Position numbers and translations under genes: made by a program. DNA of 56,988 nt from a virus. Lineage: Duplodnaviria > Caudoviricetes. Of this stretch, positions 9,481 through 47,805 are shown piece by piece. The stretch's first letter is position 1. The number at the start of each line of letters is the position of its first letter. The stretch covers positions 1 to 56,988 of IMG/VR virus record IMGVR_UViG_3300009012_000001; one strand, 5' to 3'. The notes under the pieces were generated by a model. It searched no databases and was not told where the DNA came from. It saw only the letters and a list, made by a program, of their open reading frames with translations.

Positions 9481-9564
9481 ATGAAAAAGTGCAGTCCGTT
9501 GGAATCGGGGTCCTATTCAATGCAAATCTCTTCAGGACGCACGATTGCGGGGTGTTGCTACGTT

Positions 9565-11209: not shown

Positions 11210-11377
11210 TCACTCCGTGTGCGGCCAGGATTGGCGGCACGCTGGGCAGACCCACGACCACCTTCGCCAGCCGCCGTGTTCTGGCCACAGGTAATGGAGA
11301 AACTCCGCCACGGTCCCGCAGGACGGGCAAACGTGCGTGGTGCGGTAGACCGCGTCGGGCAGGTCAGTCGGGGTCAT
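11210..11377 (-). CDS. Small zinc-ribbon protein
   Basis: CPSC..CPAC; ATGA overlap. Confidence 0.55.
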   Translation of the reverse strand: MTPTDLPDAVYRTTHVCPSCGTVAEFLHYLWPEHGGWRRWSWVCPACRQSWPHTE

Positions 11378-12633
11378 GGGAACAACGCCAGTTGTCCTTC
11401 CGGCCATGTAGGTGGCCGCTGGTTTTCCTCCGGCTCCGCCAAAATAGGGGTCGGGCCGCCTGCGACGACCGCGCCGTGGACGGCGGCGTCAACGGGCACG
11501 TCGGTGGCCGACTTTATGACAACCTCCAGTGGCTGCACCAAGTCTGCTTCCAGCGGCGCCAGACGTTGACGCATCAACGGGATGTAATCCGGCTGCAGGT
11601 CGATACCGATGGAGTTCCTGCCATTCTTCGCCGCAACGAGGAGCGTGGTCCCGCTGCCGGCGAATGGGTCGAGCACCGTCCCGCCAATCGGACACCCTGC
11701 GAGGATGCATGGGAAGACCAACGCTTGGGGGAATGTGGCGAAGTGCGCGTGGGAGAAGGCTTCCGTGGGAATCTCCCAGACGGTGCGTTTGTTGCGCACA
11801 TTCTGTACCTCGTCTGGATGATGGGTCCCGAATCCACGAGTACGCATCAGTTCCCTGTCCGCGCCCATAGTCAATTCGGGAGCCGTCAAGTTTTCTCGCG
11901 CTGCCCATGATTCGGATGAGTTCCACTCGCCAACCGACGGTTCCTGAATTGCCTCCGTATCGTAGTAGTATCTCTCCGCCTTCGCCAGCAAGAACAAGTA
12001 TTCGTGCGCCTTTGTCGGCCGGTCCGTCACGCTCTCCGGCATGGGGTTGGGCTTACTCCAAATGATGTCTGAGCGGAGCCACCAGCCATCCGCCTGGAGG
12101 GCGAAGGCCACGCGCCAGGGGATACCGACGAGGTCCTTTGGTTTGAGCCATGCATCGTGCTGTCCAGACGATACGGTTGAGGCGTACGAATCGCCCAGAT
12201 TGAGCCACAGTGTCCCGTCATCCCGCAGCACTCGCCGCACTCCCCTGAAAACCTCGACGAGATGATGGACGTAGAGGTCGAACGTGGGTTCGAGACCGAG
12301 GGAACCACGCCACGCATCGCATTTTTGGCAGCACGACGACGGGACGACAAACCGTTGATGCTCGTGGGGTTTCCCGCCTTCTAGCGTGCTTCCCTCGACA
12401 CCACCACCAGCCGATACTTTCTCGACATTGTCTTCCCATTGGTGGGAACATTCCATCTCCCCATCCCATATCTGCGCGACGAGTTTGTAGTCGCGCAATC
12501 CCCAGTACGGCGGCGAAGTCACCACGCAGTGGACCGATTCGTCAGGGATGGTTTTTAGTACGTCTAACACATGCCCGACGCAAATCGTGGCGCGAGAAAC
12601 AGTCTGGGAGAAGTCAGTCGGGTTCGATGCCAT
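11374..12633 (-). CDS. Beta-class N4-cytosine/N6-adenine DNA methyltransferase
   Basis: VTSPPYW, WLNLGDSY, IIWSKPNPMPESV, HFATFP, DPFAGSGTT. Confidence 0.92.
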   Translation of the reverse strand: MASNPTDFSQTVSRATICVGHVLDVLKTIPDESVHCVVTSPPYWGLRDYKLVAQIWDGEMECSHQWEDNVEKVSAGGGVEGSTLEGGKPHEHQRFVVPSSCCQKCDAWRGSLGLEPTFDLYVHHLVEVFRGVRRVLRDDGTLWLNLGDSYASTVSSGQHDAWLKPKDLVGIPWRVAFALQADGWWLRSDIIWSKPNPMPESVTDRPTKAHEYLFLLAKAERYYYDTEAIQEPSVGEWNSSESWAARENLTAPELTMGADRELMRTRGFGTHHPDEVQNVRNKRTVWEIPTEAFSHAHFATFPQALVFPCILAGCPIGGTVLDPFAGSGTTLLVAAKNGRNSIGIDLQPDYIPLMRQRLAPLEADLVQPLEVVIKSATDVPVDAAVHGAVVAGGPTPILAEPEENQRPPTWPEGQLALFP

Positions 12634-28446: not shown

Positions 28447-29340
28447 ATGTGGGCGATTCAACTGCTGATATTCCTGGCGGGGACGGCGGTGGCGGTGGCC
28501 ATCGGCCTCCGCGCCTACCGCGTTGAGCCGCGGCATCACATCAACCCGACCCTGCTGGTGCTGGCCGTCGTGGTCTGGGTCGGCGCGGTTTCGTTGGTGT
28601 CGGCGTTCGGGCAGGTGCCGGCGGGCTACCGCGGCGTCGTGTTGCGGTTCGGCGCGCCGACGGGGCAGGTGCTGGACCCCGGCCTATTCGCCATCATGCC
28701 CGCCGTGACGAGCGTGGCCATTATGAGCATCCAGACCGAGGCGTACGAAACGGACGCGGCGGCCGCCAGCAGCGACCTGCAGGACGTCCACACCAAGGTC
28801 ACGCTGAACTTCGCGCTCGACCCCGCGGCGGTCGTGACCGTCTACCAGAACCTGCGGCACGACTACATCGCGCGCATCGTCAAGCCGGCCATCCAGGAGG
28901 CCGTGAAGGCGGCCACGGCGGAATACACGGCGGAAGAACTCATTACCAAGCGGCCAGCCGTCCGCGACCGCATCGAGCGCATCCTGGAGCAGCGGCTGTC
29001 CAAGTTCGGCATCGCCGCACAGGCGCTGTCCATCACCGACTTCGAGTTCAGCAAATCCTTCAACGACGCCATCGAGGCCAAGGTGACCGCGCAGCAACGC
29101 GCGCTGGAGGCGCAGCGGACCCTGGAACGGGTGAAGTTCGAAGCCCAGCAGCGCATCGAGCAGGCCAAGGCCCAGGCCGAAGGGCTGCGCCTGCAGCAGG
29201 CCGTCGTCACCCCCGAACTCATCCAACTGCGCCGCGTCGAGGCGTTGCTGGCCGCCATCGAGAAATGGGACGGCAAGATGCCGACCGTCGTGACGGGGTC
29301 CGGACCCGTGCCGCTGCTGGATGTCTTCCGGCAGCCCTAA
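28447..29340 (+). CDS. SPFH/Band-7 (prohibitin-like) membrane protein
   Basis: Two TMs, VPAGYRGVVLRFG, SSDLQDV, QEAVKAATA..AEELITKR, FNDAIEAKV, IEKWDG..P. Confidence 0.92.
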   Translation: MWAIQLLIFLAGTAVAVAIGLRAYRVEPRHHINPTLLVLAVVVWVGAVSLVSAFGQVPAGYRGVVLRFGAPTGQVLDPGLFAIMPAVTSVAIMSIQTEAYETDAAAASSDLQDVHTKVTLNFALDPAAVVTVYQNLRHDYIARIVKPAIQEAVKAATAEYTAEELITKRPAVRDRIERILEQRLSKFGIAAQALSITDFEFSKSFNDAIEAKVTAQQRALEAQRTLERVKFEAQQRIEQAKAQAEGLRLQQAVVTPELIQLRRVEALLAAIEKWDGKMPTVVTGSGPVPLLDVFRQP

Positions 29341-31344: not shown

Positions 31345-31710
31345 TCAGTCGGCCATCCCGCCGTCACGCAGCAGCGCGATGAGCCGCGCCACGGCGTCGG
31401 TGAGGTCGTTGGTGCGGTTGACGATGCTGACCATCGCTTGGCCCAGCGGGGGCAGCAGGAAACTGTTGATGTAGGTGGGCATCAACGCGGCGCTGTCCGG
31501 GGCCGCCGGCGGCCGGGGCGGCAGGTCCAGTGGCGGCGGCTGCAGGGCCGGGACCGTCGCGGCGTGGGCGAGGCGCGCCCACAGCGCGGGGTTTGCTGAC
31601 CGCAGCATGCGCAGCGTCGGTGGCGTCGTGGACGTGTCCTGCCACAGGTCGCCCGGGCCGCGCATGAACCGCAGCGCGTCCGCCGAATCCGTGCCCGTGT
31701 AGCGAATCAT
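31345..31710 (-). CDS. Hypothetical virion-associated protein
   Basis: GDLWQDTS; C-terminal LIALLRDGGM. Confidence 0.55.
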   Translation of the reverse strand: MIRYTGTDSADALRFMRGPGDLWQDTSTTPPTLRMLRSANPALWARLAHAATVPALQPPPLDLPPRPPAAPDSAALMPTYINSFLLPPLGQAMVSIVNRTNDLTDAVARLIALLRDGGMAD

Positions 31711-31843
31711 ATCGTGCTGTTGACCGTGAAGGTCATGTCATAGACCGTCATGGTCGGGGTCAATCCATAGTTCCCGCTGGACATCATTTCCACCACGCCG
31801 GTCAACCAGCGCGTCGAATAATCACCCAAGCCAGCAGACCGAA

Positions 31844-32639
31844 TCACGATGATGAGACCTTGAACCGCGCGTACTCGAGCAGGATATCGCTTTGGGCGGC
31901 CCCGAGCACGCGGGACACGTGCGTCATCCCGAGCACGGCACGGCTGACGATATTTGTCGTCAGCGTTTGCTGCAACGACCCATTGAAATAATAGTCAATA
32001 CTGTTCGGCTTGGCGATCACCTTGAATTGATGGAATGTATTGACGGCCACGTTAATGTCAGACCCATCGGTACCCGTCCCTTCCTTTTTCTGTTGGGGTC
32101 GCAACTTCCCGCTGTTCACCATGGTCCAAGCGGCGAAATCCGAGAGCAATGTCGTCAGCAGTCCGCCCGCTTGCGCCAACCCGATGAGAATGCCCGCCGA
32201 ATTCGCGCGCCAGTTGGTGTCGAGGGTAGGGAAGAAGACCCACGCTTCGTAACTGATGCTGCCCCATTCCCCGACATGCGCCGTCTTTTTGGTGATGAGA
32301 TCAGCACTGTCGCCGCCATCGGCGATGAGGTCCACAATCCCTCGGCTCACGGGGGAAGTCCGAACTAAACTCGTCCCGACGATCCCAGCCCGCATCGTCC
32401 AATATGTGTCGATGTCGGCCAACGCGCCGCCGGTCACGTTCGCACTGGCCACGATGAACGTATTCGCGATATCCCGGTCGCCCGGCGTGTCGGGTAGGTT
32501 GCTAATATTCCCCGTATCCGCGTAGATGGTCCGCCACGTCAGCGCTGACGTCCCCAAATCATAGGTACTCGCCGCCTGCGGTTTGAGTGTCTGCGGGTCG
32601 AGCACACCCGCCACGCCATGGATGTGGTCGCGGATATTG
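31844..32639 (-). CDS. Tail fibre/receptor-binding protein, exon 2 (lectin-like C-terminus)
   Basis: The frame NIRDHIHGVAGV..TYDLGTSALTWRTIYAD continues exon 1 (QMNQVEV) after splicing. Confidence 0.75.
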
Positions 32640-32836
32640 CTGGAAAATCCTCGTTATCGCTAACGAGATTGGACTATATCTTACTGCGAGATTCCGCAGC
32701 CCCCGCATGTAGTCTCTGAGGGGTCCCGATGGACTTCCCTGCTGATTGGCCGCACCCGACGATTGTCACCGACTCCGGTACGTCGGGATACCCGGCTGTT
32801 CCAGCATATAGCGGGGTTACGAGGCCAACTTATCCG
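32640..32836 (-). ncRNA. ORF-less group I self-splicing intron (197 nt)
   Basis: P UAUAUGCUGGAA, Q AAUCAGCAGG, R UCAGAGACUACA, S AAGAUAUAGUCC; P1 CGAGGU/GCCUCG with a U-G pair at the splice site; P9 CUCGUUA-GCGA-UAACGAG; terminal G at 32640. Confidence 0.93.
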
Positions 32837-32908
32837 ACCTCGACCTGATTCATTTGGGCCGCCGTGAGCACTTGGCCCACGCTAGAAAGTCTGGAATGAA
32901 TACGCCAT
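32837..32908 (-). CDS. Tail fibre exon 1 (MAYSFQTF/SVGQVLTAAQMNQVEV), broken by one extra nucleotide
   Basis: ATG 32908 after GGAGG; TTC TAG at 32887-32882 needs a +1 shift to reach the spliced frame. Confidence 0.6.
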
Positions 32909-32914
32909 CCCAGG

Positions 32915-33451
32915 TCAACGCCTCCATCCCCACGCAAACTCCGCGGCGGTCTTGGCGTGTTTTCGAAGGTTGCACGACGAACAGGCGCAGCAGATGTTGT
33001 CTGGCCAATTCGTCCCGCCGCGGGCCAATGGAATCTTGTGGTCTACATGAAAACGCCCATGCAATTGCCGCCAACAATAGAAACACTGTGCGCGTTGTGT
33101 CGCGTAGATACGCGCGACATCGTGGATTCCGTACCAACCAATCGCCTGCGCCTTGCGGGCTCGCCGATAGCGACGACGCGCACGCAGGCGCGATTCAACA
33201 CGCAACCTCGTGGCATACCGCCTTCGGTAACGACGTTGACTTTCCAATCGGCGACGAGGATACCGCTGACGGTATCGTGCCGAAGCCATCCTATTCGCAG
33301 CGCGGATTTGTTCTGGATGTCGTGCCTTCAACAATCGCCATGCCTTGCGTCCACAGGCGCGGCATGATGGGCATAATCCGTCGTACCTCTGTCTGTCGCG
33401 GGAATATGCGACAAATGGTTTCCAACGGCGGCATTTCGTGCAACGTTTCAT
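32915..33451 (-). CDS. Free-standing HNH homing endonuclease with N-terminal zinc finger
   Basis: KRCTKC..CRAC; CFYC..HVDHKIPLARGGTN..N..ACSSCNLRK. Confidence 0.9.
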   Translation of the reverse strand: MKRCTKCRRWKPFVAYSRDRQRYDGLCPSCRACGRKAWRLLKARHPEQIRAANRMASARYRQRYPRRRLESQRRYRRRYATRLRVESRLRARRRYRRARKAQAIGWYGIHDVARIYATQRAQCFYCWRQLHGRFHVDHKIPLARGGTNWPDNICCACSSCNLRKHAKTAAEFAWGWRR

Positions 33452-33720
33452 TCGATGGCCACATATGTTCCTTCGACAAGGCGCGTGATTCTTCCGTCTG
33501 GTTCGATGCGGTATTCACCTGCCGCCGGGTCAAGATGGTGATTCCGCAGAATCTGTTCCCCATCGGCCCGCTCGATGTCCTCAGATTTCTCAATACGCTC
33601 TTCGGCCAATCGCACTAATCGTCGCCACTCCGCCGTCGCCACACCAATCATATAGGCATCGTGGTCGCGCCGCTTGCGCTGTTCAAGAATCTTGGCCAGT
33701 TCCTCATCCGTGATTCTCAA
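33448..33720 (-). CDS. Hypothetical protein
   Basis: Probable TTG start coupled to the upstream stop; GGGGAG RBS. Confidence 0.55.
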   Translation of the reverse strand: MRITDEELAKILEQRKRRDHDAYMIGVATAEWRRLVRLAEERIEKSEDIERADGEQILRNHHLDPAAGEYRIEPDGRITRLVEGTYVAIE

Positions 33721-35195
33721 AATGCCAGCTCTCTCCCCGAATCTAGTTTCCCGAGCGTGGCGTGGTCGAGCACCAGCCACGGCCCTGTTTCCTGCAGGTG
33801 CGCCGCGTAGGTCGTCGTGTGCTCCAGGCCACGCACCAGGGCGATGTCGTGCGCCAATCCCGTGACCACAAACCCCGTGCCCACCGCCGTGTTCGATTCC
33901 ACGAGGTAGACGAGGTCCCCCAACTCCCGCGCCAGGACGTCTGGGAAGACGTTCTTCAGCGCGAACGTCACGTCAGGAACCGGGTCCTTGCGCTGCAGCA
34001 CCAGGAAATCGGCGTAGTCCTGGGCGTGTTGGAACTTGCCGATGAAGTCGCTTTGCAGCGACAGGTTCCGGACGCCGTAGAGGGTTTGGCTACTGGCGGT
34101 CGCCGATTGTCGCAGGATGTCGGGCTGGCGCTGGATGCTGTAGCCGCGGACCTGGAATTTGTTGAGGTAGGTCTGGTCCGACGACCCATTGAAGACCGTC
34201 GCCACCGCCGTGGTGCCGAAAAACGTGACGCTGGCGGACGCCGTCGCCGTGCGGTCGAACGAGAACAACCCGAAAAACGGGTCGGTCGGCACCAAATACC
34301 CGCTAATCGTGCTCAGGATGTAATCCGCGCTCCGCGTCACCGACACGCTTTGCGCGGGCGTGTCGCGTTCCAACGAGTCCGGGTCGAGGTAGGTGAGCCA
34401 GAATCCCACGGATGACGACGCGGAGATTGTGGGAACCTCCTGCAGCCACGCCACCGTCTGCACGGACGAGGCGATGCGCCGCGGGGTCCCCTGGACCTTG
34501 ATGGCGTTGACGACTTGGTCGTCGGACAGGGTGTAGCCGAACCCGAAAAAGTCATTGACGTAACTGGCCACCGCCGAACTGCCCAGGTCCAGGTAGCGCG
34601 TGCGCAGGTTGACCCGACCGGCGCCGTCGACCCACAGGTGGGAATACCCGAACCGGGCGATGTCTTCCAGCGCGCGCACGGGCTCGTATTCGCGGAACCA
34701 CGCGAACGGGATGAGGTCCCACGGCGGCAACACATCCACGCTGCGGTCGGCCGCCGCCACCCCCGCCGCCGACAGCACGTCGGTGGCGAGGCTGCTGGGG
34801 GCGATGTCGACCGCGATGGACGTGTCGATGCGCCGGCGGGCGAGGTCCTTCACGCGGTCGGTGGCCTGCATCCGCGCCGTGCGCCGTGCCAATTCTGGGT
34901 CGGGCGCCCACGCGTCGACAAACCCAGCGAACAGTTGGTAGGTGGTGACGTTGTGGATGGCGAGGATGCGGACCCGCTTGTTCGGTTTCAGGTTCGGCGC
35001 GTACGGCGAGGCGGCGTTCTCCGGGCTGAACAACCCCGCGTTGTTGTCCAGGAGCAGGTCGCACCGCCCGGGGGACAGGGAGTCGAAGATGGTCGCGCGG
35101 TCGCGTGTGACGCCGACGCGCAGGCAATAGGACGACAGGTTCGTGTAACTCCCCGCGACGAATTCGACGCCGACTTCGTAGGTGGGCGTGGCCAC
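33717..35195 (-). CDS. Tail tip/baseplate hub-like minor tail protein
   Basis: Follows the tape measure; LDNNAGLFSPEN..SPY, LFAGFVD, ELGDLV, LVLDHATLGKLD. Confidence 0.8.
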   Translation of the reverse strand: MATPTYEVGVEFVAGSYTNLSSYCLRVGVTRDRATIFDSLSPGRCDLLLDNNAGLFSPENAASPYAPNLKPNKRVRILAIHNVTTYQLFAGFVDAWAPDPELARRTARMQATDRVKDLARRRIDTSIAVDIAPSSLATDVLSAAGVAAADRSVDVLPPWDLIPFAWFREYEPVRALEDIARFGYSHLWVDGAGRVNLRTRYLDLGSSAVASYVNDFFGFGYTLSDDQVVNAIKVQGTPRRIASSVQTVAWLQEVPTISASSSVGFWLTYLDPDSLERDTPAQSVSVTRSADYILSTISGYLVPTDPFFGLFSFDRTATASASVTFFGTTAVATVFNGSSDQTYLNKFQVRGYSIQRQPDILRQSATASSQTLYGVRNLSLQSDFIGKFQHAQDYADFLVLQRKDPVPDVTFALKNVFPDVLARELGDLVYLVESNTAVGTGFVVTGLAHDIALVRGLEHTTTYAAHLQETGPWLVLDHATLGKLDSGRELAF

Positions 35196-37290: not shown

Positions 37291-38253
37291 TCAGAAGGAT
37301 GACTTCGGGAGCGTGGTGAGGTCAATCCAGTACGCGGTGGCCGAACTCACTAAGTACCGCGCCCGGCCTTCGAACGCCACCGTCAGCCGCTCGCGCCCTG
37401 GCATGCCCAAGGGGAACGCGGTGTAGACCACCCGTGGCCATTCGAACGTGAGGGCGAACGACGACGCCTTGAAGAACGACAGTTTGAACACCTGCTCAGT
37501 CTGCGACACAAAATTTGCATATTCGGTCTGGTTGTCGAACCCGATGGTGCCCGTGAGGCGCGCGGTCTGCGGGCCGCGGGCGCGCATGAACGCGACTTCC
37601 GCCGTATTGTTCAGCGCAGGGACGCCCTCGACCTGCCCGTCCAGCACGAACGTGAACGCCTCGATGTTCGCCACCGCCGCCCCGGCGATTTGTAGGCTCG
37701 CGCTGTCCCAGGTGAACGGGTCGGTGGGCGAGGCGGGGAACGTCGGCGCGCTTTTGGCGATGACACTGGTGGTCTTCGCCACGACGCCCAGCGTCAGGCG
37801 CAGGTCCTGGTTGGGCTGCACGGCGAATGTACCGCGTCCGAACTGCGCCCCGGCGTACCGCTGGGATGAGGTGACGTCCCGGAAAATTTCCAGCGTGTAG
37901 GACGGGAATGGCGCGCTCGTGCTGGCGTCTCCGGTCGGGGACAGGAACGTAAACTTGTGCAGGACCCCAGACAGGACAGCGGTGACCGACCCAGAGTTCG
38001 TCAGCCCGCGCAGGGCCTGGCGCAGGAATTCTGGGTGCCCCTGCGCGACGAGGTCGCCTTCCACGCGCCGCAAGCCGGCGGTGTCGTCCGGTTCGGCCCG
38101 GGTGCCGACGATGTTCTCCGTGTCGAAGCGGTCGATGGCCAGCGTGACGTTCTCCGACATCGCGTAGGCGAAGTCGCCGCTGGCCACGGCGACCGGCGTG
38201 CCCCAGGTCGTTTCCCTCGCAATCCCAACATGTCCAGCGGCCCCATAGGGCAT
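37291..38253 (-). CDS. Major tail tube protein
   Basis: GIARETTWGT, VEGDL, SYTLEI; position; no sheath gene. Confidence 0.85.
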   Translation of the reverse strand: MPYGAAGHVGIARETTWGTPVAVASGDFAYAMSENVTLAIDRFDTENIVGTRAEPDDTAGLRRVEGDLVAQGHPEFLRQALRGLTNSGSVTAVLSGVLHKFTFLSPTGDASTSAPFPSYTLEIFRDVTSSQRYAGAQFGRGTFAVQPNQDLRLTLGVVAKTTSVIAKSAPTFPASPTDPFTWDSASLQIAGAAVANIEAFTFVLDGQVEGVPALNNTAEVAFMRARGPQTARLTGTIGFDNQTEYANFVSQTEQVFKLSFFKASSFALTFEWPRVVYTAFPLGMPGRERLTVAFEGRARYLVSSATAYWIDLTTLPKSSF

Positions 38254-38266
38254 CGCAGTCTACCTC

Positions 38267-38713
38267 CTATGCCGTGGTCGCCCGCACGTCGGCGACGAGG
38301 TCGACCGTGCCGCCGCGCAGGGTGTCTTGGTCCGATTCCAGGAACGTGCCGCCCGCCAGCCACGATTCGGTGACGGTTTGGTTGAGCGACGAGTTCCCCA
38401 GCAACGCAACTTCCACATCGGCGAGCAGTTCGTCGCGCAACTGCGCGGCCTTGGCCATGCCGTCTAGGCTGAACTCCCAGCATTCCAGCGTGTAGGTCAC
38501 CAGGAACCGCGCCACGGTATGCGCCGCGATGGGCTGGATGGCGACGGGCAATTCACGGCGCGCTGGGCGGACGTTGACGAACGGGCATAGTTCCGGGCCG
38601 AGCGCGTTCCCTTCATCGACGACCACGCGGATGGCCCGCGCGGCCAAGGTCGGGTCGGCGAGCAGGATATTGGCGATGGCTTCGGCGACGGCGTGGTAGG
38701 CCACCCTACCCAC
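38267..38713 (-). CDS. Tail terminator-like protein
   Basis: Lies between the gpG-like gene and the tail tube. Confidence 0.65.
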   Translation of the reverse strand: MGRVAYHAVAEAIANILLADPTLAARAIRVVVDEGNALGPELCPFVNVRPARRELPVAIQPIAAHTVARFLVTYTLECWEFSLDGMAKAAQLRDELLADVEVALLGNSSLNQTVTESWLAGGTFLESDQDTLRGGTVDLVADVRATTA

Positions 38714-39296
38714 GGCGGCGGACCACCTCGTCGACGTACGCCTGCAGCGTGTCTTCGGCCAGTTGCCGCGCGAGTGGTTCAGACGGTAGCATCGGCCGCG
38801 CGGGAATGCCGGGGTGGTGGACTTCCCGCGCGAACGCATAGAACCCGCGCCGCGCCTTACGTGGTTTCCCACGGCCTGCGCCCTGCGGGGCGGCCGTGAT
38901 GAACCGCAAGAACTTCCGGGCCTTCGGCCGGATGACATACGGCCGCGTCCCGAACTGGTGGAAGACGGCCTTCTGGTCGTTGGTCCCGACCGTGACGTCG
39001 TTCACGCCGAGCGCGTAGGCCGAATCGGGCGCCCCCGGGACGAACGATTGTGCCATGCGGCCCGTGTCGCGCAGGGGCTGCGCCGTCCCGGCCCCGCGGC
39101 CTTTGCGACGCGCGGCAACGGTGTTGGGCGACAGCGGCGCCCAGGGGCGTTCCAGGCCGCCTGCGCGGAAGTTCTGGTCTATCCACGCGACGACCCGCTG
39201 TCCGACCAAGTCCATCATCACGCGGCCGTCCACGGCGGCCCCCAGGGCGGTCAGGCGGCGCACGGCGTCGGCAGCATCAACGTGGACCTCTATCAT
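38706..39296 (-). CDS. Mu gpG-like virion morphogenesis protein
   Basis: WAPLSPNT, LRDTG, VGTN..HQFG, IPARPML. Confidence 0.88.
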   Translation of the reverse strand: MIEVHVDAADAVRRLTALGAAVDGRVMMDLVGQRVVAWIDQNFRAGGLERPWAPLSPNTVAARRKGRGAGTAQPLRDTGRMAQSFVPGAPDSAYALGVNDVTVGTNDQKAVFHQFGTRPYVIRPKARKFLRFITAAPQGAGRGKPRKARRGFYAFAREVHHPGIPARPMLPSEPLARQLAEDTLQAYVDEVVRRRG

Positions 39297-39818: not shown

Positions 39819-40751
39819 TCAGCCCGTCACTCCCTCTCGCACGAGGCCGACTTGTTCGGCGACCAATTCCGTGAACCCGACCAATGGATGCCATCCCGTC
39901 GCGGTCATAAACTTCCGCGGGGCGGCGACTAACGCGGGCGGGTCGTTCGGCCTGGCCAGCGCTGGGTCCGTCCTGACCTTCGCCACGTCGACGCCGAGCA
40001 GGCCGCACGCCGTCCGCACGACGTCCCAGACACGGCGACCGTCACTAGAACCGATGACCCAGTCGTCTGGCGGCTGCAGCAACGCCACACGCATGGCGCG
40101 GACCATGTCGTCCGCATGGCACCAATCCCGGACGATTTCCTGGTCACCCAGGACCAATTCGTCCACCCGCCCGTCCTTGATGGCCCGCACGCCCGCGCAG
40201 ACCTTGTAGAACACGCCGTACCGCTTGCGTGGCGATTCGTGCTGGTACAGGATGCCGCAGGTCACGGGCAGTCCGTACTGCAGGCGGTACATCCGCGCCA
40301 GATGGTAAGCGGCGAGTTTGCTGCCATCGTAGGGCGTCAGCGGATGCATCGGCGTACCTTCGTGCTGTGGGGCGGGCGCGAGCCCAAACATGCCGCTGCT
40401 CGCCGCGACGAAGACCTTCGGCGGTTTGGGCATCGTCCGCGCCGCCTCCAGCACGGCCAGTGTCCCGCCGACATTGACGTGGTGGTAACGCCACGGCGCG
40501 TCCCAACTGTCCGTGACGAGGTTGAGCGCGGCGAGGTGGTAGACTTCGTCGGGGGCGCGTTCCCCGAGGAGTTGGCGTACCAGCCACGCGTCCGTCACGT
40601 CACCCTTCGTCACGAACCCAGCCGACGGGGCGGCGTCCCGCAGCGACGGCGTCGCCGCGTCCATGCCGGATACCTCGTAGCCCATCCCGGCCAAATGCCG
40701 CGCCAGATACCACCCGTCCTGTCCCGCGATGCCCGTGATGAAGGCTTTCAT
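39819..40751 (-). CDS. GDP-mannose 4,6-dehydratase-like SDR
   Basis: AFITGIAGQDGWYLA, PDEVYHLAA, PYDGSK, GILYQHESP, RDWCHA; ASSGMFG lacks the usual Glu. Confidence 0.85.
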   Translation of the reverse strand: MKAFITGIAGQDGWYLARHLAGMGYEVSGMDAATPSLRDAAPSAGFVTKGDVTDAWLVRQLLGERAPDEVYHLAALNLVTDSWDAPWRYHHVNVGGTLAVLEAARTMPKPPKVFVAASSGMFGLAPAPQHEGTPMHPLTPYDGSKLAAYHLARMYRLQYGLPVTCGILYQHESPRKRYGVFYKVCAGVRAIKDGRVDELVLGDQEIVRDWCHADDMVRAMRVALLQPPDDWVIGSSDGRRVWDVVRTACGLLGVDVAKVRTDPALARPNDPPALVAAPRKFMTATGWHPLVGFTELVAEQVGLVREGVTG

Positions 40752-41506
40752 GCTGGCAGAATCACCGCCCCCAAGAATTCCTCGCCTTTCCCGATATATT
40801 GGCATCGTTCGACGCGGCCGAACCCCTCGACCCGCAGGGCGAGTTTGGCTGGCGAGTACCAATCGGCAAAGTCCCCGACCTCGTCGCAGGCGCGCACAAA
40901 CCGCTGGAATGCCGTGTGCGTGCTGATGTCCATGTCAATCGGCGGTAGGGGGATGCCCAGCGCCGTCCAGCGTCGGTCGGAATACACGAGGATGCGGGCC
41001 TCCTCACACCAGCCCAACGCCTCGCGGAGAATGTCCCGTATCTGCGGCGTGTGGTGAAGCGTCCCGGACGAATAGAAAATTTCCATGTCGGACCATGTCG
41101 GTGTTCCGTCCATCATCACCGACGCCTTGCAATTCGCGTAGCCGTGGAGTTCCAATACGCGGATGGCCAGCGCAACGTTGTCCGGCACGATGTCGGTGAC
41201 CATGACGTCGTTCCCCGCCCGCGCGAACTGCAGGGCCTCCAGCCCGACGCCGCACCCGAAATCCAGGATGCGTTTGCCGTGCGTCGTGTCCAGCCCGAAG
41301 AACTCGCGCCATCCGTTGTGCCAGTTGCGCCAGCCGTTGACGTCGTAGCGGGTCCGTTCCATCTGCGCGATGGTGGCCCGCAGGTGGTCGTCGGACCACT
41401 GGAGCATGTGCGCCGAGGAGATGTAGCCCACGTCGTCCACGGGCGGGCGCGCCCATTCCGCCTTGGCCCGCACGGCGTCATAGCCCACGGTCGTAACGCC
41501 ATTCAT
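40748..41506 (-). CDS. Class I SAM-dependent methyltransferase
   Basis: ILDFGCGVG, TDIV, YSSGTLHH. Confidence 0.8.
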   Translation of the reverse strand: MNGVTTVGYDAVRAKAEWARPPVDDVGYISSAHMLQWSDDHLRATIAQMERTRYDVNGWRNWHNGWREFFGLDTTHGKRILDFGCGVGLEALQFARAGNDVMVTDIVPDNVALAIRVLELHGYANCKASVMMDGTPTWSDMEIFYSSGTLHHTPQIRDILREALGWCEEARILVYSDRRWTALGIPLPPIDMDISTHTAFQRFVRACDEVGDFADWYSPAKLALRVEGFGRVERCQYIGKGEEFLGAVILPA

Positions 41507-41647
41507 TCATGGCGGCGCGCCACCACGCCGTGGCCCACCCGTCTTCTACCACGGATTCTTGCGACACCACCAACCCTTCGAACAAAAACGCCTGCATGTC
41601 GGGCATCCACATTGGCGTCCCCAGTTGTTGCGACCACGCGTACAGGT

Positions 41648-42064
41648 TCATCGGAACACGCCATCAATCGCGTGCGGGCTGTAGGGCGGGTCCCAATGCT
41701 GGGTCGGGAAATGTGCCGCATCGTCGCGTTCGTCCACGGCGAGCATCCACAGCGCGCCGACGTAGCCCAGCCAACTCTCGAAGGCCTGCCGTCGGTCCGC
41801 GACGGGCCGCCGCGGGTCATAGCATTTCGCGCGGTGGACGCGCAGATACCACAGCGCCAGCACGTGCGACAGCACGGCGGCCAGCCGCATGTTCCCGTCA
41901 TACCGCCCGTGTGTGGGAAACGTGCGGATGACTTCCCGCATGACCTGCACGAGCCACTTGTCTTCCCGCGTCCGGTCGTGGCGCGGGTCGGGGGAGGGCC
42001 GCGATGCCCGCTTGATTTCTTGCTGCACGAACGCGACCCACCAGACCGGGGAATGCCCCGTCAT
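41648..42064 (-). CDS. Hypothetical protein in the sugar cluster
   Basis: Fills the gap in the operon; start uncertain. Confidence 0.5.
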   Translation of the reverse strand: MTGHSPVWWVAFVQQEIKRASRPSPDPRHDRTREDKWLVQVMREVIRTFPTHGRYDGNMRLAAVLSHVLALWYLRVHRAKCYDPRRPVADRRQAFESWLGYVGALWMLAVDERDDAAHFPTQHWDPPYSPHAIDGVFR

Positions 42065-42086
42065 CCGGTGAATCCACTGCGCCGCC

Positions 42087-43271
42087 TCATTGGACGTGCG
42101 GCTGCGGGAGCGGGACAATCCACCGCCCCCGGTAGTCTGGTTCGCGCGCCTGGAACGCTTCAATGAAGTGGAACGGCAGGCAGAACAACCACGCCGGCTT
42201 CCGCCGCCGCATCTCCTCCTCGCTGATAATGGGGATTCCGCTTCCGACGGTCCGTTTCCCCCATTTGTCGGGGTTGCGGTCGGCGATGTACGGAACGAGG
42301 TCGGGCCCGATGCCGTACGCCTGCAGGATGGTGTTCCCCCGCGTGCTGGCGCCGTAGCCCGCGATGGTTTCCCCGGCGGCCGCACGGCTGCGCAGCATCT
42401 GCAGCGTCGTCTTCTTGTTCCACGCCACGCGCCGCGCGAACGCGGGCCAGTCGGCTGCGACGGGGTCCGTGCTGATGCCGCCGCGCCCATGCGTGATGAA
42501 GCAGCGGAACGACCCGCCGTTGACGTCGTTGAACTGCACTTTCGCGATGTGCAGGGCGTGTTTTTCCACCAGTGCCGCGAAGGACTGCACGTCGTAATAG
42601 CACAGGTGTTCGTGGCTGACGTTGCCCACGTCGTTGGTGCGGACCATGGCGGGCGCGTAGGCCATCTGCACCACGAAAACGCCGTCGGTGGCGAGGCACG
42701 CCTTGACCGCGCGCAGGAACGCGTTCGGGTCGTCCAGGTCGTAGAACATGGCGACGGCGAAAACGGCCTTCGCTTTACCGTAGGTGCTGACGAACGACCC
42801 GACGCCACGCGCGGGCGGGAAGAAGTCGCAGACGATGGTGTTCCCGCCGTCTTCCGCCGCCGTCCGCAGGTTGGTGGCTGGGTCGAATCCGATGCGCCGT
42901 GCCTGCGGCGGGAGCATCCGCAGCAGCGTCCCGTCGTTGCTGCCGATGTCCACGACCACGTCGCCCGCTCGCAGGTCCACCATCCGGCCCGCGTCGTCCA
43001 CCACGTCGCGCAGGGCGCGGACCATCTGTTCGTTCGTGCCGCTGCGATACCAGTAGCCGCGTTCGTAATGCCACGCCTGGGGCACGGTGTGCGTCAGTTG
43101 CACCAGCCCACACCCGTCGCAGCGCACCAGGGCGAGCGGCGCGCGGTGCCCGTCCTGGTCCGCGTCGACGAACGTGCTGACGTAGTGCTCGCCCAGGCGC
43201 AGGACGTCAATGAGCCGCGGGCTGCCGCAGGCGCGGCACGCCCGGATTTCTCTGACCGAGTCGATGGACGT
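42087..43271 (-). CDS. NDP-sugar C3-methyltransferase (Zn-finger + SAM + C-terminal domain); non-canonical start
   Basis: CRACGS..CDGCGLVQL, YWYRSG, DIGSNDGTLL, HEHLCYY, NGGSFR, GYGASTRGNT. Confidence 0.88.
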   Translation of the reverse strand, partial: TSIDSVREIRACRACGSPRLIDVLRLGEHYVSTFVDADQDGHRAPLALVRCDGCGLVQLTHTVPQAWHYERGYWYRSGTNEQMVRALRDVVDDAGRMVDLRAGDVVVDIGSNDGTLLRMLPPQARRIGFDPATNLRTAAEDGGNTIVCDFFPPARGVGSFVSTYGKAKAVFAVAMFYDLDDPNAFLRAVKACLATDGVFVVQMAYAPAMVRTNDVGNVSHEHLCYYDVQSFAALVEKHALHIAKVQFNDVNGGSFRCFITHGRGGISTDPVAADWPAFARRVAWNKKTTLQMLRSRAAAGETIAGYGASTRGNTILQAYGIGPDLVPYIADRNPDKWGKRTVGSGIPIISEEEMRRRKPAWLFCLPFHFIEAFQAREPDYRGRWIVPLPQPHVQ

Positions 43272-44397
43272 CTACCCCTTCCTGGTCCGGCACGATGCGC
43301 CAGGGGTCGTACACCACCGACCCTGGGGCGAACGGCGTGGTCTGCCACCGTCGGTCGTTCGTGCCGATGAGGACGACGGCGGGGCCCAACGGCGTGGCGT
43401 CGTCGAACGTAGCGACGTCCTCGCCGCGGTCTTCGAGGATGGTCTTGACCAGCAGCGCGTGGCTGCCCGTCGTGATGTCCGTGCCCGCCTTGTACGCCAC
43501 CCCGCAGATGGCCTTCGGCAGGTCGTGCGCGCACATCAGGTCGGCCAGCCATTCCGCCTGCCGTTCCCGCGCGAGCATCACGGCCTCGAACAGGTCGTAG
43601 GACAGGCCCGCCTGGCGCGCCAGATGTGACAGGGCGATGTTGTCGCGGGGGTGGCAACCCCCGCCGTCGCCCATGCCGGCGGACAGGTAGGCGGGGCTCG
43701 TGAGCCGTTTGTTGGCCATCCGGAGCGCGCCGAGCACGGCGTCCACGTCGCAGCCCGTCTTGTGGCACAGTTCCAACATCGTGTTGGCGAACGCGAGTTT
43801 GAGGCCGATGAACGTATTGTAAGCGACCTTCGTCAATTCGGCGTCGCGCACCGACATTTTGATGATGGGCGCCTCCACGGTCTGGCGGTAGAACGATTCG
43901 GCCACCCATTCCGCCTTCAGGCTGTCGCAGCCGAGCAACACGAATTCCGGATGGAGGTAGTCGCGTTCCACCGTGCCCATGGCGATGAACGACGGGTTGT
44001 AGACGTACGGCACGCCGCCCAACACCGGCTTCAGGTCGCGGTCCGACGTCCCCGGCAGGACGGTGCTGACGACCGCGACGCAGGTGTCCGACCCGGGCCG
44101 GACGTGCTCGACGAGCCGTGCTACCGCGTGCCGGAGGTGGCCGTAAAAGAAGTCCGCTCGGTCGGCGGGCAGGCGCGTCACGCCCTCATATTCCGGGCCG
44201 TGCGGCGTCTGCACCGCGACGAACACCAACTCCTGCCGGGCCACGTCGGCGAGGGCGCCCGTGGCCAGCCCGGCCGCGCGCGCGGCGTCCATGCGGTCCT
44301 GGGCCAGGTCGTGCCCGACCACGGCGTGGCCCTTGCCCCGCACGGCCAACGCCACGGGCAGGCCGAGTTTCCCGAGCCCGACGAACCCGACGTTCAC
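43207..44397 (-). CDS. UDP-glucose/GDP-mannose 6-dehydrogenase family protein
   Basis: GFVGLGKLG, VQTP, STVLPGT, AELTKVAYN, catalytic GGGCHPRD. Confidence 0.92.
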   Translation of the reverse strand: MNVGFVGLGKLGLPVALAVRGKGHAVVGHDLAQDRMDAARAAGLATGALADVARQELVFVAVQTPHGPEYEGVTRLPADRADFFYGHLRHAVARLVEHVRPGSDTCVAVVSTVLPGTSDRDLKPVLGGVPYVYNPSFIAMGTVERDYLHPEFVLLGCDSLKAEWVAESFYRQTVEAPIIKMSVRDAELTKVAYNTFIGLKLAFANTMLELCHKTGCDVDAVLGALRMANKRLTSPAYLSAGMGDGGGCHPRDNIALSHLARQAGLSYDLFEAVMLARERQAEWLADLMCAHDLPKAICGVAYKAGTDITTGSHALLVKTILEDRGEDVATFDDATPLGPAVVLIGTNDRRWQTTPFAPGSVVYDPWRIVPDQEGVDVHRLGQRNPGVPRLRQPAAH

Positions 44398-44406
44398 CGA
44401 ATCCCC

Positions 44407-44435
44407 TTGACGGCAGGGTGGTATCTTGGTATAAT
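44407..44435 (+). promoter_or_regulatory. Consensus promoter opposing the late operon
   Basis: TTGACG-N17-TATAAT with TG extension. Confidence 0.75.
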
Positions 44436-44440
44436 GCTAC

Positions 44441-44570
44441 CTGGATGGGGCGGCGCGGACGGCGGGACGCGCGAAACCGTCACAGGGAAGCCCGCCATGC
44501 GAACCACAAGCGCGTAGCCAGGCCGGGGCACAACCCGGTCACGAGTGGAAACCAACGCCGCCCCGCCCGG
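44441..44570 (+). ncRNA. Putative structured small RNA of unknown class
   Basis: Begins at the predicted TSS; closing helix GGGGCGGCG/CGCCGCCCC; internal hairpins. Confidence 0.55.
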
Positions 44571-44578
44571 CCGTAATT

Positions 44579-47524
44579 TCACCAGTACGCCCCCACGAAC
44601 GGCGCGGCGGCGTCCTTGGCGCGCCAGGTCAATTCCGCTTCCAGGTCCTCCATCGTGGCGAACCGGAAGGTCTGGGGGCCGACCCCGTTGGGCGGGACGG
44701 TGTAGTCCCTCGACGCGGCGAGTTCGAACTTGAAGTCGAACCCCTGGCCCAGGATTTTGTTCGCGTCGGAGGCGTAGGTCAACGTGTCCGCGTTCATGTA
44801 CCCCGGTTTGCCGCGGAAGTATTGCCGCCACGTGTCCAGCACGGTCTGGCACCGCTGGCGGACCTGGTCGGTCACGCGCATCCCGTTTTGCTGCAGTTCG
44901 TAATTGGCCAGCAGCAACTGGTCGCGGCAGATGAAGTGTTTCTGCAGCAGGCGGTCCGGGTAGGCGGCGATGTCGCGCTGCAGCAGCGGCCAGTTCCGCC
45001 AGAACCGTCGGCGGCGCACGGCCTCGGTCAGGTAGCCCGTGTGGGCGATGGCCGCGTCGGACAGCACGACCGTCAGGCCCGGCCCCTCGTTGAGCCCTAG
45101 TTCTGGGTGCTCGTGAATCATGCCGAAGAAGCGCATCGTCTTCCCGCCCTGCGGGGCGCGGCGGAACAGGCGCACGGGCAGGTCGGGCTTGAAGGTCGTG
45201 TCGCAGGCGAAATGATGCTGGCGGATGGAATACCCGTTGAAGATGTTCGCGCGCAGGTACTTGGGGACGCGTTCCGGGTCCATCAGCCGCTCGTCCGTGT
45301 CAATCCACAGCACCCAGTCCATCGCGCAGGCGCCGAGCGCGTCGTTGCGCGGGGCCTCGAACCCGTGCGCGACGGCGTCGCGGGCCGGGACGACGCGGGC
45401 ACGGAACGAGTCGGCGATGCGCCGCCCCTCCGGGGACAGGCCGGTGTCGGCGACCACGAATTCGTCGACCACATCCACCAGCGACCGCAGGCACCAGCGC
45501 ATCTGGTCCTCCGCGCCCGCCCCCGCGATGACCGCGGCGGACACGGTCTGCCGCGGCCGCTGCAGCCGCAGTTTGCGGCCCATGTCGATGGGCCGGACGG
45601 GGGTCTGGTCGGCTTCGTAGGACACGAGGTGCCAGCCCAGGGCCTCGCCCGTGCGTTCCTCCAGCGTGAACGGCATGGTCTGGACCGAAAACCGCGGCTT
45701 GTGGCCGAACATGTCGTGCAGGTCGTGCGGGTCGAATTCCCAGACATGCGCGCGGTGCGGATAGAACCCGTCGGCCAGCGGGTTCGCGCTGAGGTATTCC
45801 CACGGCCCGTACGGCACGGTCAGGAACACGGCGCCGCCGGGCTTCACCCATCGTTCGAGTTTGGTGACGGTCGTCCACGGTTCGGGCAGGTGCTCCAGCG
45901 TTTCGCCCATGAACAGCAGGTCGAACGGAGCGTCCGCAGCCAGGTCCGCGTCCTCGTCGCCCACGCGGAATTCCAGGTTCGCGGGACGGACGGCGCGTTC
46001 GGCGCGGAATCGGTTGGCCCAATCCACGCCGTGCTTGTCGACGTCCACGCCCAGGAATTGCCGCTCAGGAAATTGGTTGCTGAAACCCACCGTGTAGCAG
46101 CCGTGCGCGCAGCCGTAGTCGAGGACCCGGACGGCCGTGGGCCGCTCGCGGAGGGACTGGACGCAGGCGGCGAACCGTTGCTGGTTCGTTTCCGCGTCGA
46201 AGTCCGGCGCGTGCGTCTGCCCGATTTTCTCGTACTGCGCCGTGTAGTCATCCGGCCCTCCGTCGGTGAACGCCCACTGCTCGCGCAACAGCGCCCGGAT
46301 GCGGCGGGCGGGTTCGTCGTCCAGGCCCGCGACCGCTCGCTTCGCGGCAAGGATGTCGCTGTGGCGGATGAAGTGGTAGGCGAGCCGATGCGGGCTGTCG
46401 TTGTTCGCGGCGATGAGCCGGTCGAACCCCGCCGCCCAGTCCGCGGCGACGCCGGACCAGTCCAGCGCCTTGGCGCGTTCCAGGCCAGCGCGGCTGGCCG
46501 CGTCCCACGCCGCGTCGTCGCGCACATAGCGCAGCACGGCCTGCACGAACGGAGCGACATAGTCCGGGTTGACACGCGCACCCGTCCCCTCGCCCACGAC
46601 GGCGGGGATGTCCACCAGCGTCCCGGCGCCTGGGGCCAGCGTTTCCGGGAGCGCCCCGCGCGCGCTGCTGACGACGGGCAGACCGCACGCCTGCGCCTCC
46701 ATCGCGCTGATGCAGGACACCTCCGCGAACGCCGGCTGCATCGGGGACGGCGTCGGATAGACGTACACGCCGCCCGTGAGGTAGTGCGCGTAGAGTTGGT
46801 CCTTCGTCAAATGCCCCAGCCATTCGACGCGGTCGCCGAACGCGCGCATCCGCTCGTCGATGGACTGGTAGAACGGCCGCATCTCCTGGACGGTGTTGTC
46901 GTACCCGCAGACGCACACCCGCAGGGCCGGGTCGGCGGCGAGCAGCGCCGGGAACACGGCGCCGAGCAGGACGTCCAGCCCGCGCTCCGGCCGGGCCGCG
47001 AACAGCAGCTTCTTGCGGTCGCGCGCCGCGCCAGGAGCGATGTGCGCCCGGACCCGCGCCAGGTCCACGCCGTTGCGCGTTGTCCACAGGGCGTCGTCCG
47101 GCAGCGCGTACACCTCCCGGTACTGCGCCCGCATGAACTCGCTGAGGACCATCACGCGGTCCACGTTCCACATGGTGCCGCGGAAGCGGGCGGCCTGGCG
47201 GCCCAGGGCGAGGTCGTGGCACCACAGCAGGTTGAGGCGGCTGGCCATCCGCTGCCCCAGGGCGTCGGGCGTGCGCTGGACGACGCAGACGTCGTGCGGC
47301 ACCGTCTGCGCGTAGACGCCGAACTGGTCGGCGGGGAAATAGGGGACGCCGTCGTACTCGCCCGGGCGGCCGTGGCTGAAGACGCGGACCCGCAGGCCCA
47401 GTTTGGCGAGTTCCCGGGCCACGCACAACGCGGCGGTTTCGGACCCGCCGAGGGCCGCGTGGTCCAGCGTGTCGCCCTGGAAGGGCATGCCAGGCGCGAA
47501 CATGAGGACGTCCAGCCCAGTCAT
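44579..47524 (-). CDS. GT4-methyltransferase-GT2 fusion (981 aa)
   Basis: GT4: GGSETA, PERGLDVLL, EVSCISAMEAQACG; MTase: VLDYGCAHG, ETLEHL; GT2: WIDTDE, IHEHP, AHTGYL. Confidence 0.9.
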   Translation of the reverse strand: MTGLDVLMFAPGMPFQGDTLDHAALGGSETAALCVARELAKLGLRVRVFSHGRPGEYDGVPYFPADQFGVYAQTVPHDVCVVQRTPDALGQRMASRLNLLWCHDLALGRQAARFRGTMWNVDRVMVLSEFMRAQYREVYALPDDALWTTRNGVDLARVRAHIAPGAARDRKKLLFAARPERGLDVLLGAVFPALLAADPALRVCVCGYDNTVQEMRPFYQSIDERMRAFGDRVEWLGHLTKDQLYAHYLTGGVYVYPTPSPMQPAFAEVSCISAMEAQACGLPVVSSARGALPETLAPGAGTLVDIPAVVGEGTGARVNPDYVAPFVQAVLRYVRDDAAWDAASRAGLERAKALDWSGVAADWAAGFDRLIAANNDSPHRLAYHFIRHSDILAAKRAVAGLDDEPARRIRALLREQWAFTDGGPDDYTAQYEKIGQTHAPDFDAETNQQRFAACVQSLRERPTAVRVLDYGCAHGCYTVGFSNQFPERQFLGVDVDKHGVDWANRFRAERAVRPANLEFRVGDEDADLAADAPFDLLFMGETLEHLPEPWTTVTKLERWVKPGGAVFLTVPYGPWEYLSANPLADGFYPHRAHVWEFDPHDLHDMFGHKPRFSVQTMPFTLEERTGEALGWHLVSYEADQTPVRPIDMGRKLRLQRPRQTVSAAVIAGAGAEDQMRWCLRSLVDVVDEFVVADTGLSPEGRRIADSFRARVVPARDAVAHGFEAPRNDALGACAMDWVLWIDTDERLMDPERVPKYLRANIFNGYSIRQHHFACDTTFKPDLPVRLFRRAPQGGKTMRFFGMIHEHPELGLNEGPGLTVVLSDAAIAHTGYLTEAVRRRRFWRNWPLLQRDIAAYPDRLLQKHFICRDQLLLANYELQQNGMRVTDQVRQRCQTVLDTWRQYFRGKPGYMNADTLTYASDANKILGQGFDFKFELAASRDYTVPPNGVGPQTFRFATMEDLEAELTWRAKDAAAPFVGAYW

Positions 47525-47805
47525 GCGCGCGTCTGCCGCACCACGAACCGCTCGCGCCGCACGAAATTGTAGGCGCTCCCGGCCACGGTCTTCAGCGCGA
47601 ACCATTCCCACAGGTACAATTCGCTTTCGCTGGTCGGCATCGTGAACAACGCGTAGTAATGGGTGGTGTCGGACTGCTGCGCCGTGATGGACGCGACGAC
47701 CGTGCCCGCCACGCCCGTGACCTTGAAGATGGGCGCGGAATCCGGCGCCACCGAACTGACGAACGTGAACTGGACCGTGTCGTTCGTTTCGAAGACGTCG
47801 GTCAC
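47521..47805 (-). CDS. Small beta-rich virion protein
   Basis: GTGA/ATGA coupling; DTVQFTF..YYALFT..YLWEW. Confidence 0.6.
   Translation of the reverse strand: MTDVFETNDTVQFTFVSSVAPDSAPIFKVTGVAGTVVASITAQQSDTTHYYALFTMPTSESELYLWEWFALKTVAGSAYNFVRRERFVVRQTRA

Follow-up and report, generated by a model that had tools for sequence, protein, structure and literature searches.

A 197-nt group I intron without an open reading frame beside a free-standing HNH gene in a tail-fibre-like gene of a soil phage

We found that a tail-fibre-like gene of a soil phage is split by a group I intron of 197 nt (32640..32836, minus strand), which contains no ORF and has no P2, and that a free-standing HNH endonuclease gene of 178 aa (32915..33451, minus strand) lies directly upstream of the interrupted gene. 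A match to an Rfam model, comparison with intron-less homologues, the RNA fold and covariation together show that the 197-nt sequence is a genuine group I intron. With regard to its mobility, we lean towards the reading in which intron and HNH gene are linked and travel together as a mobile pair, moved by homing. The 56,988 bp of DNA that were analysed, here called the window, make up an entire IMG/VR virus record, which has direct terminal repeats, an estimated completeness of 100% and a GC content of 0.66; its source is a complete 57-kb soil phage genome.

The intron and the HNH gene map to the distal end of the tail module. Genes of the Mu-type portal (1721-3991), large terminase (4962-6248), tail-completion (38706-39296) and tail tube (37291-38253, Pfam Phage_tube_2) types are encoded on the minus strand of the genome, and they are followed by a tape-measure-like ORF of 464 aa and a gene for a tail protein of 492 aa with matches to tail PHROGs (33717-35195). 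After these come, in order, a small ORF (33448..33780, minus strand, start uncertain), the HNH gene, the interrupted gene and further small genes, one of which has an Rz-like match that hints at a spanin. The small ORF gave no matches in Pfam and PHROG profile searches; a homologue of it lies directly 5' of the fibre gene in the related contig L003, described below. The stretch 31700..33800, which spans the fibre gene, the intron, the HNH gene and the upstream ORF, has a GC content of 0.55-0.62, compared to 0.66 for the genome and 0.63-0.73 for the flanks. This lower GC was counted in favour of mobility.

The boundaries of the intron were set by homology, independently of the RNA model. Exon 1 ends in ...CGAGGT at 32837, the intron runs from 32836 to 32640, and exon 2, which starts with CAATATCC at 32639, continues for 264 codons and a stop (31844..32639, minus strand). 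When the exon-2 translation was compared with a 90%-clustered protein database, two matches were obtained among 1337 candidates, and the one that was not the window's own protein was P0002 (259 aa; 104/263 residues identical; E 1e-48), in which N25 aligns with the first residue of exon 2. When the window was aligned with L003, the contig that encodes P0002, the two flanks ..GAGGT and CAA.. stood exactly 197 nt apart, with a gap of that length in L003. A HMMER search with P0002 returned 874 proteins at E<=0.001, and 11 of these were examined. Seven of the 11 share the N-terminus (P0012, P0054, P0085, P0071, P0072, P0006 and P0136), while P0011, P0088, P0091 and P0101 have the repeat motif alone in common with it. 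In all eight N-terminal homologues, that is, these seven and P0002, the sequence runs uninterrupted through the junction as ..NQ(E/V/T/L)(E/V)(V/I/D)-N(I/T/V/D)RDH.., and exon 1 agrees with residues 9-23 of intron-less P0054 at 13 of 15 positions. Splicing is predicted to give ..MNQVEV-NIRDHIHG.. in frame, with no residue gained or lost, which bears out the in-frame QVEV-NIRDH junction proposed in an earlier note made from the sequence. By this comparison, the intron lies in codon 24, where it splits a Val codon.

Other searches for alleles of the fibre gene returned little. Protein-pattern scans of IMG/VR found none, a degenerate exon-2 pattern scan had no matches, tblastn of P0002 against GenBank phages likewise had none, and the seven loci that contain the exon-1 17-mer were all chance matches in unrelated contexts. 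L003 was the sole result of one metagenome scan for such alleles. The database protein for the window locus itself (P0001) begins within exon 2, which shows that gene callers mis-annotate intron-split genes.

The covariance model of Rfam family RF00028 matched 32650-32865 of the minus strand over model positions 1-253 with 53.5 bits (gathering score 50; E 8e-11); no other Rfam group I match was found in the genome at the gathering threshold or at E<=0.1. P1 (32820..32842, minus strand) is a hairpin of 7 bp in which exon nucleotides 32842-32837 (CGAGGU) and the first intron nucleotide, C1, pair with the internal guide at 32826-32820 (intron nt 11-17, GGCCUCG), placing the U-G wobble pair at the 5' splice site, its U being 32837. 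Both the guide for P10 (32835-32826) and an in-frame TAA (32832-32830) lie in the loop of P1. P10 joins intron nt 2-11 to the first 8 nt of exon 2 (32632..32639, minus strand) through eight pairs, seven Watson-Crick and one G-U, with a 2-nt AA bulge. Nothing except UAA separates P1 from P3, so P2 is absent, and the 3'-terminal base of the intron is G (32640). When the exon reading frame is followed into the unspliced intron, it gives ...VEVG*, the TAA lying two codons in. Such an early in-frame stop is described as common among phage and bacterial group I introns in the cited sections of PMC3984707.

The core of the intron, which comprises P3, P4, P5 with P5a and P5b, P6, the 5' strand of P7 and P3', spans 32701..32816 on the minus strand. 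We located P3 at 32816-32811/32706-32701, P4 at 32806-32801/32745-32740, P5 at 32796-32793/32752-32749, P5a at 32787-32781/32761-32755, P5b at 32779-32776/32771-32768 and P6 at 32739-32731/32726-32719, all on the minus strand. The P7 pseudoknot (32672..32714, minus strand) is formed by GACUA at 32714-32710 and UAGUC at 32676-32672 and encloses P3' and P8 (32700-32694/32689-32683), and P9 is a hairpin of 7 bp closed by a GCGA tetraloop (32650..32667, minus strand). The R and S elements align to the Rfam consensus, and all of the classical P, Q, R and S elements were found. An unconstrained MFE fold of the intron reached -73.8 kcal/mol (z -2.74), a value equalled by 1 of 200 shuffled sequences, and recovered every nested helix, namely P3, P4, P5, P5a, P5b, P6, P8 and P9. 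P7.1 and P7.2 are lacking, which we take to argue against the T4-type IA2 class for this intron.

The 17-nt word that covers the Q/P6 core occurs at 21 IMG/VR loci and at least 123 genome loci. The closest relatives by blastn, among the matches listed, were L039 (75% over 153 nt), L023 (81% over 109 nt) and L028 (72% over 158 nt). Eight related loci were run through Rfam. The introns of L039, L028 and L075 sit in bacterial 23S rRNA genes, from candidate-phyla and actinobacterial MAGs, and L075 has two of them; L084 contains 23S and 5S rRNA genes with no intron at the Rfam gathering score, and L018 gave no Rfam match. The remaining three, L023, L008 and L013, are viral. In L023 the intron splits an HK97-type capsid gene (PF05065, E 4.9e-28, profile positions 1-249 of 280) that lies beside a scaffold gene. 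Against GenBank phages, blastn of the intron found just a 44-nt core match in two Lactococcus phages (four records).

An RNAalifold consensus of the window intron and seven relatives contained 52 pairs, and in 29 of these both partners change while the pairing persists; P4 and P6 hardly vary across the eight aligned introns. The window intron shares its core and helices with the 23S rRNA introns and that of L023, but the host genes differ. Most relatives carry extra sequence between P1 and P3, whereas the window intron carries none, and on this comparison it looks like a P2-less derivative. Since P2 is missing here and most relatives have that extra sequence, protein-free self-splicing of the window intron is not guaranteed. 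The Azoarcus tRNA-Ile intron, at about 205 nt a very small bacterial group I intron with minimal periphery, retains P2 and lies in the anticodon loop; the window intron is likewise very small and minimal at its periphery, but it lacks P2, has a P5a/P5b extension and lies in coding sequence.

Collectively, these results uphold the account of the intron in the earlier note, which had described a compact 197-nt group I intron without an ORF: the model match that it had named as a check was obtained, the complete P/Q/R/S core is supported by the MFE fold and by the compensatory pairs, and the exact gap against L003 fixes the splice site, and with it the U-G pair of P1, by a route that does not depend on the RNA. 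The absence of P2 and the terminal G were read directly, and the P10 that the note had called possible was found, together with the bulge that it had not mentioned.

The splicing pathway would be expected, by analogy, to follow the standard group I route. Once the RNA had adopted the usual P1-P9 core fold, an exogenous G would attack after the U of the P1 U-G pair, and P10 would align exon 2, such that the exons would be ligated and the terminal G released. On unspliced RNA, ribosomes would stop at the in-frame TAA within the intron. No RNA datasets containing the locus were found. In the RNA run X5, contigs matched just the intron core at 32701-32761, with five differences and one gap followed by a different P8; these contigs represent a related intron of another, abundant organism.

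The gene that the intron interrupts was examined by profile, motif and fold. Exon 2 encodes an N-terminal NIRDHIHG.. sequence followed by a YDLG..W..Y motif and, at the C-terminus, a predicted lectin-like beta-sandwich. The profile matches of the protein were to phrog_36881 (unknown function, 8.9e-5) and to Laminin_G_3, the latter at 18.8 bits, under the cut-off of 27.6. The YDLG..W..Y motif corresponds to about residues 40-68 of P0002 and is what most of the 874 HMMER matches align to; often there are 3-31 copies of it in one protein, and the lengths of these proteins reach 5294 aa. Among 10 proteins scanned, P0011, P0003, P0005 and P0091 (sub-cut-off) matched the stalk end of PF12219, the endosialidase tail spike family, and P0011, P0088 and P0091 match several tail fibre and tail spike PHROGs. 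An AlphaFold model of the host-gene protein was of low confidence, with a mean pLDDT of 51.9 and values below 50 over the N-terminal 100 residues; the beta-sandwich occupies about residues 100-264, with a pLDDT of 60-85 over 170-230. Foldseek placed the C-terminal part among ConA-like glucanase, lectin and carbohydrate-binding folds (best E 5.8e-8, TM about 0.5). The Foldseek matches include lectin-like binding domains of several unrelated proteins, and the fold class alone was used.

When the fibre gene was compared with that of L003, 141 of the first 180 nt were identical and the identity then fell to about 50%, and the gene downstream is conserved again (231/288 nt, 80%). Judged from these sequences, a conserved N-terminal anchor joined to a variable C-terminus is the usual mosaic pattern of receptor-binding proteins. 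We conclude with moderate confidence that the host gene is tail-fibre-like, given its position, the motif shared with fibre and spike proteins and the lectin-like C-terminal fold, and its product would probably bind a receptor. The earlier note had called it a tail-fibre and receptor-binding gene; its place in the tail module, the motif and the fold speak for that designation, and membership in a named family is weak.

The HNH gene is intact. Its product matches Pfam HNH (PF01844) over residues 123-167 with 43.8 bits (cut-off 21.4; 2.9e-11), HNH_5 with 3.2e-8, and, over its full length, phrog_1035, 'endonuclease VII', with 6e-25. The protein has a Cys-rich N-terminal segment and a CxxC..HVDH..N..CxxC core (CFYC..HVDH..N..CSSC). 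The HNH gene starts with an ATG that overlaps the stop of the ORF before it and ends with a TGA 6 nt 5' of the ancestral ATG of the fibre gene; 79 nt lead from its last stop base to the first base of the intron. Among 583 candidates, 94 database relatives were found at E<=0.001. GenBank phage matches cover the catalytic third of the protein only, at about 42% identity, and in the one IMG/VR relative whose surroundings were searched (L002, 31% identity) there was no group I intron nearby at E<=0.01.

L003 represents an empty allele of the locus. There, the homologue of the upstream ORF is followed by 20 nt and then by the fibre gene, with neither the HNH gene nor the intron. The window thus differs from L003 by two insertions 79 nt apart, the HNH gene of about 540 nt in the spacer and the 197-nt intron in codon 24. 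Since both elements are absent from L003, the pattern is the one expected of mobile insertions, as judged from one comparator. These data agree with the earlier description of the HNH gene as free-standing and as ending 79 nt upstream of the 5' splice site. In three DNA runs no contigs joined across the intron or the HNH gene, so no polymorphism was seen in those populations.

Free-standing endonucleases can mobilise adjacent introns that lack an ORF or are defunct, according to the cited parts of PMC3984707 and PMC2790892; the earlier note had stated this for introns without an ORF. These sources distinguish two routes. In collaborative homing, the endonuclease cuts empty alleles at the site where the intron inserts, and a genome that has the intron is protected by it; in trans homing, the cut falls close by and the intron follows through co-conversion. 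In the window, the HNH gene would have entered the short gap that immediately precedes the fibre gene. In a mixed infection, its enzyme would cut or nick a relative that lacks both elements, either at the intron site (collaborative) or nearby (trans), and repair from the donor would copy the HNH gene and the intron together. The 79-nt spacing means that either pathway would move the two as a unit. HNH-driven homing is plausible by analogy with the known systems, and the activity of the HNH protein, its target and the linked transfer are what we infer for this locus.

A less probable, though possible, explanation is that the two elements were inserted independently. The HNH enzyme would then home to its own intergenic site, as in intron-less homing, and the intron would have arrived separately, for example via reverse splicing or an earlier homing event, and would be immobile, at most hitch-hiking with its neighbour. 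The HNH gene does sit exactly in an intergenic spacer, which is typical of free-standing homing genes, with examples in the Cluster J phages (sections cited of PMC3706429), and the closest relatives of the intron, among the matches listed, lie in unrelated genes, those for 23S rRNA and a capsid protein, with no requirement for an HNH enzyme. L003 differs from the window in both elements at once, so that this single comparator fits independent insertions equally well and cannot separate two events. However, at a distance of 79 nt, a conversion initiated by the HNH enzyme would almost certainly co-convert the intron, a principle set out in the cited part of PMC2790892, at which point this explanation merges with trans homing.

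We consider it quite improbable that the HNH protein is not a homing enzyme at all, having another phage role, such as one associated with packaging or recombination, and standing next to the intron by chance. Phage HNH proteins do have several roles, and the closest named relatives of this one carry generic labels (McrA-like or HNH endonuclease). However, the gene lies within the tail module, far from the terminase gene at 4962-6248; a second, weaker HNH-like ORF (9048-9185, 21.8 bits) is closer to that gene; and the HNH gene is absent from L003, which is otherwise collinear.

The 5' end of the interrupted gene differs from that of its family, and here the earlier note has to be corrected, as the conserved start is out of frame in the window through a 1-nt insertion in exon 1. 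Family members begin MAYSFQ(T/V)YSVGQ..; in the window, the ATG that follows the HNH stop opens a remnant of eight codons, MAYSFQTF, that ends in TAG (32882..32908, minus strand), and the remaining exon 1 (..SSVGQVLTAAQMNQVEV) is in the +1 frame relative to the family start. One extra T (TTC-T-AGC) explains the shift, and L003 is one base shorter at the same place. The TAG is followed by a C and then by GTG at 32880, which opens the in-frame part of exon 1 (32837..32880, minus strand; ..GQVLTAAQMNQVE) that runs into the split Val codon. Contigs from three studies are identical to the window, with no differences and no gaps: X3 (1468 nt, 32272-33739), X4 (359 nt, 32701-33059) and X1 (7914 nt). 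X1 may be the source of the record, which leaves two independent observations. A sequencing or assembly error was considered as the cause of the frameshift and rejected, the same sequence being present in the contigs of all three studies.

We favour termination at the TAG followed by reinitiation at the GTG, which would yield a protein that lacks 9-10 N-terminal residues. No Shine-Dalgarno sequence precedes GTG 32880, and the ancestral ATG retains GGAGG 12 nt upstream. A programmed +1 frameshift at TTC-TAG is unlikely, since after the slip the Phe tRNA would sit on UCU, and conservation lends it no support, as all homologues examined have an uninterrupted start. The frameshift may impair the host gene. 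That the locus is decaying, with an inactivated fibre gene and an intron that is a relic and need not splice, is the least probable explanation, and a very improbable one: the insertion ends the ancestral frame after eight codons and is reproduced in the contigs of three studies, but exon 2 is open for 264 codons, nothing is missing from the core helices, and the U-G pair and terminal G are likewise intact; the GTG lies 1 nt past the TAG so that reinitiation could restore nearly all of the protein, and in the homologue P0006 the called protein begins no earlier than MNQEEV.

To our knowledge, the virion genes of phages seldom contain introns, and studies of natural pairs in which an intron without an ORF neighbours a free-standing endonuclease gene are few. 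For an intron in a phage tail gene there is known precedent in BAKA and Optimus, and for introns mobilised by neighbouring endonucleases there is precedent in S-PM2 and T4 mobE. According to the relevant sections of PMC3706429, the Cluster J mycobacteriophages BAKA and Optimus have a minor tail gene interrupted by a 265-bp group I intron that lacks an ORF and whose splicing was demonstrated by RT-PCR, and capsid-gene group I introns are present in Tuc2009 and LittleE. The window intron resembles that of BAKA and Optimus in being small and endonuclease-less, in lying in a tail structural gene of a high-GC phage, in the final U of exon 1 and the final G of the intron, in having been recognised against intron-less relatives, and in that the BAKA and Optimus genomes are rich in free-standing HNH genes (PMC3706429, same sections). 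The window intron is shorter, 197 nt against 265 bp, and its splicing is predicted whereas that of BAKA was demonstrated; furthermore, the sections cited describe no HNH gene directly beside the BAKA tail intron, in contrast to the window (PMC3706429). Apart from this Cluster J work, literature searches on the theme, limited to open-access papers, listed no report of a tail-fibre gene whose intron has an HNH gene next to it.

In cyanophage S-PM2, as related in the cited portions of PMC3984707 and PMC2790892, the psbA intron is a case of collaborative homing with the free-standing F-CphI, which cuts the intron insertion site. That target was shown for F-CphI, whereas the one proposed for the window HNH protein is putative; F-CphI uses an Endo VII-type motif (cited part of PMC6083498), whereas the window protein is a Pfam HNH; and the host gene in S-PM2 is photosynthetic, that in the window structural (tail-fibre-like). 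Trans homing is exemplified in the cited part of PMC2790892 by the T4 nrdB intron, which is moved by the free-standing HNH enzyme MobE. The likeness lies in an HNH-family free-standing enzyme adjoining a gene with an intron unable to move alone, and in the dependence on proximity. As described in the same part of PMC2790892, MobE makes its nick at a distance from the insertion site, and a defunct endonuclease ORF persists in the T4 intron, whereas the window intron has no ORF.

The features of modest interest in this locus are the small size of the intron without P2, its location in the anchor region, which is conserved although the fibre gene is variable, and a tolerated frameshift in exon 1. 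Pairs of ORF-less introns and endonucleases are proposed intermediates in the origin of mobile introns. The present locus offers a compact, sequence-defined candidate, made up of a 197-nt ribozyme without P2, an HNH protein of 178 aa and the natural 'empty' allele L003, which is testable with synthetic DNA. Going further, one might read the HNH gene and the intron jointly as a composite homing cassette in the fibre anchor, upstream of the hypervariable part, whose homing would co-convert the fibre flanks and act as a selfish drive of host-range exchange in co-infecting soil phages, with the exon-1 insertion, tolerated via reinitiation at the GTG, being perhaps a scar of immunity or repair; we regard this as speculative and rather unlikely as a whole. 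Because the pair lies where the conserved part of a receptor-binding-type gene gives way to the variable part, it is relevant to the question of how nucleases influence the exchange of host-range modules.

The tail-fibre-like gene that the group I intron interrupts is represented in the database by a public protein, P0001 (256 aa; window positions 31844-32614, minus strand), whose start is a GTG codon within exon 2. The call begins at this GTG and therefore misses exon 1 as well as the first eight codons of exon 2.

The closest viral relative of the window intron was observed in an IMG/VR contig, L023 (2419-2635, minus strand), with 81% identity over 109 nt. There, the intron splits an HK97-type major capsid gene towards its 3' end, such that positions 1-249 of the 280 in profile PF05065 precede the intron, and a scaffold gene adjoins the split capsid gene. 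Lactococcus phages LW81 (70035-70078) and P1048 (63259-63302) each carry a 44-nt stretch matching the P4'-P6-P7 region of the intron at 84%. The matching stretches lie without an annotated feature in both phages and may be unannotated group I introns.

Outside viruses, the actinobacterial MAG locus L075 harbors two group I introns (2411-2649 and 2677-2914, minus strand), about 30 nt apart, in a single 23S rRNA gene. In sequencing runs X1, X3, X4 and X5, short contigs match the intron core (window 32701-32761) with 1-5 differences and then continue into a different P8; one of these contigs comes from a soil metatranscriptome. Their depth was 32-115, as compared to 3.5-10 for the phage. The probable source of these high-depth contigs is abundant soil bacteria whose 23S rRNA introns resemble those in L075 and in L084, a locus with 23S and 5S rRNA genes.

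Elsewhere in the window, a second HNH-like ORF (8973-9482, minus strand) matches PF01844 at 21.8 bits, barely above the cut-off. Terminase and DNA methylase genes lie nearby, and the ORF may encode a packaging-associated HNH. The two DNA methylase genes (N6_N4_Mtase; 6525-7652 and 11374-12633) are both on the minus strand, and one includes a ParB-like N-terminal domain. Directly past the lysis/tail region, on the opposite strand, lies an SPFH/Band 7 family gene (28447-29340, plus strand; 5.9e-34).

Flanked by head and tail genes, a sugar-modification cluster occupies 39819-47611 on the minus strand. It comprises, all on that strand, genes for a GDP-mannose 4,6-dehydratase (39819-40862; 8.5e-69) and a UDP-glucose/GDP-mannose dehydrogenase-like protein (43207-44397), along with a gene at 44579-47611 whose 1010-aa product fuses glycosyltransferase with methyltransferase domains. 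The cluster might serve in glycosylation of virion or host surface components.
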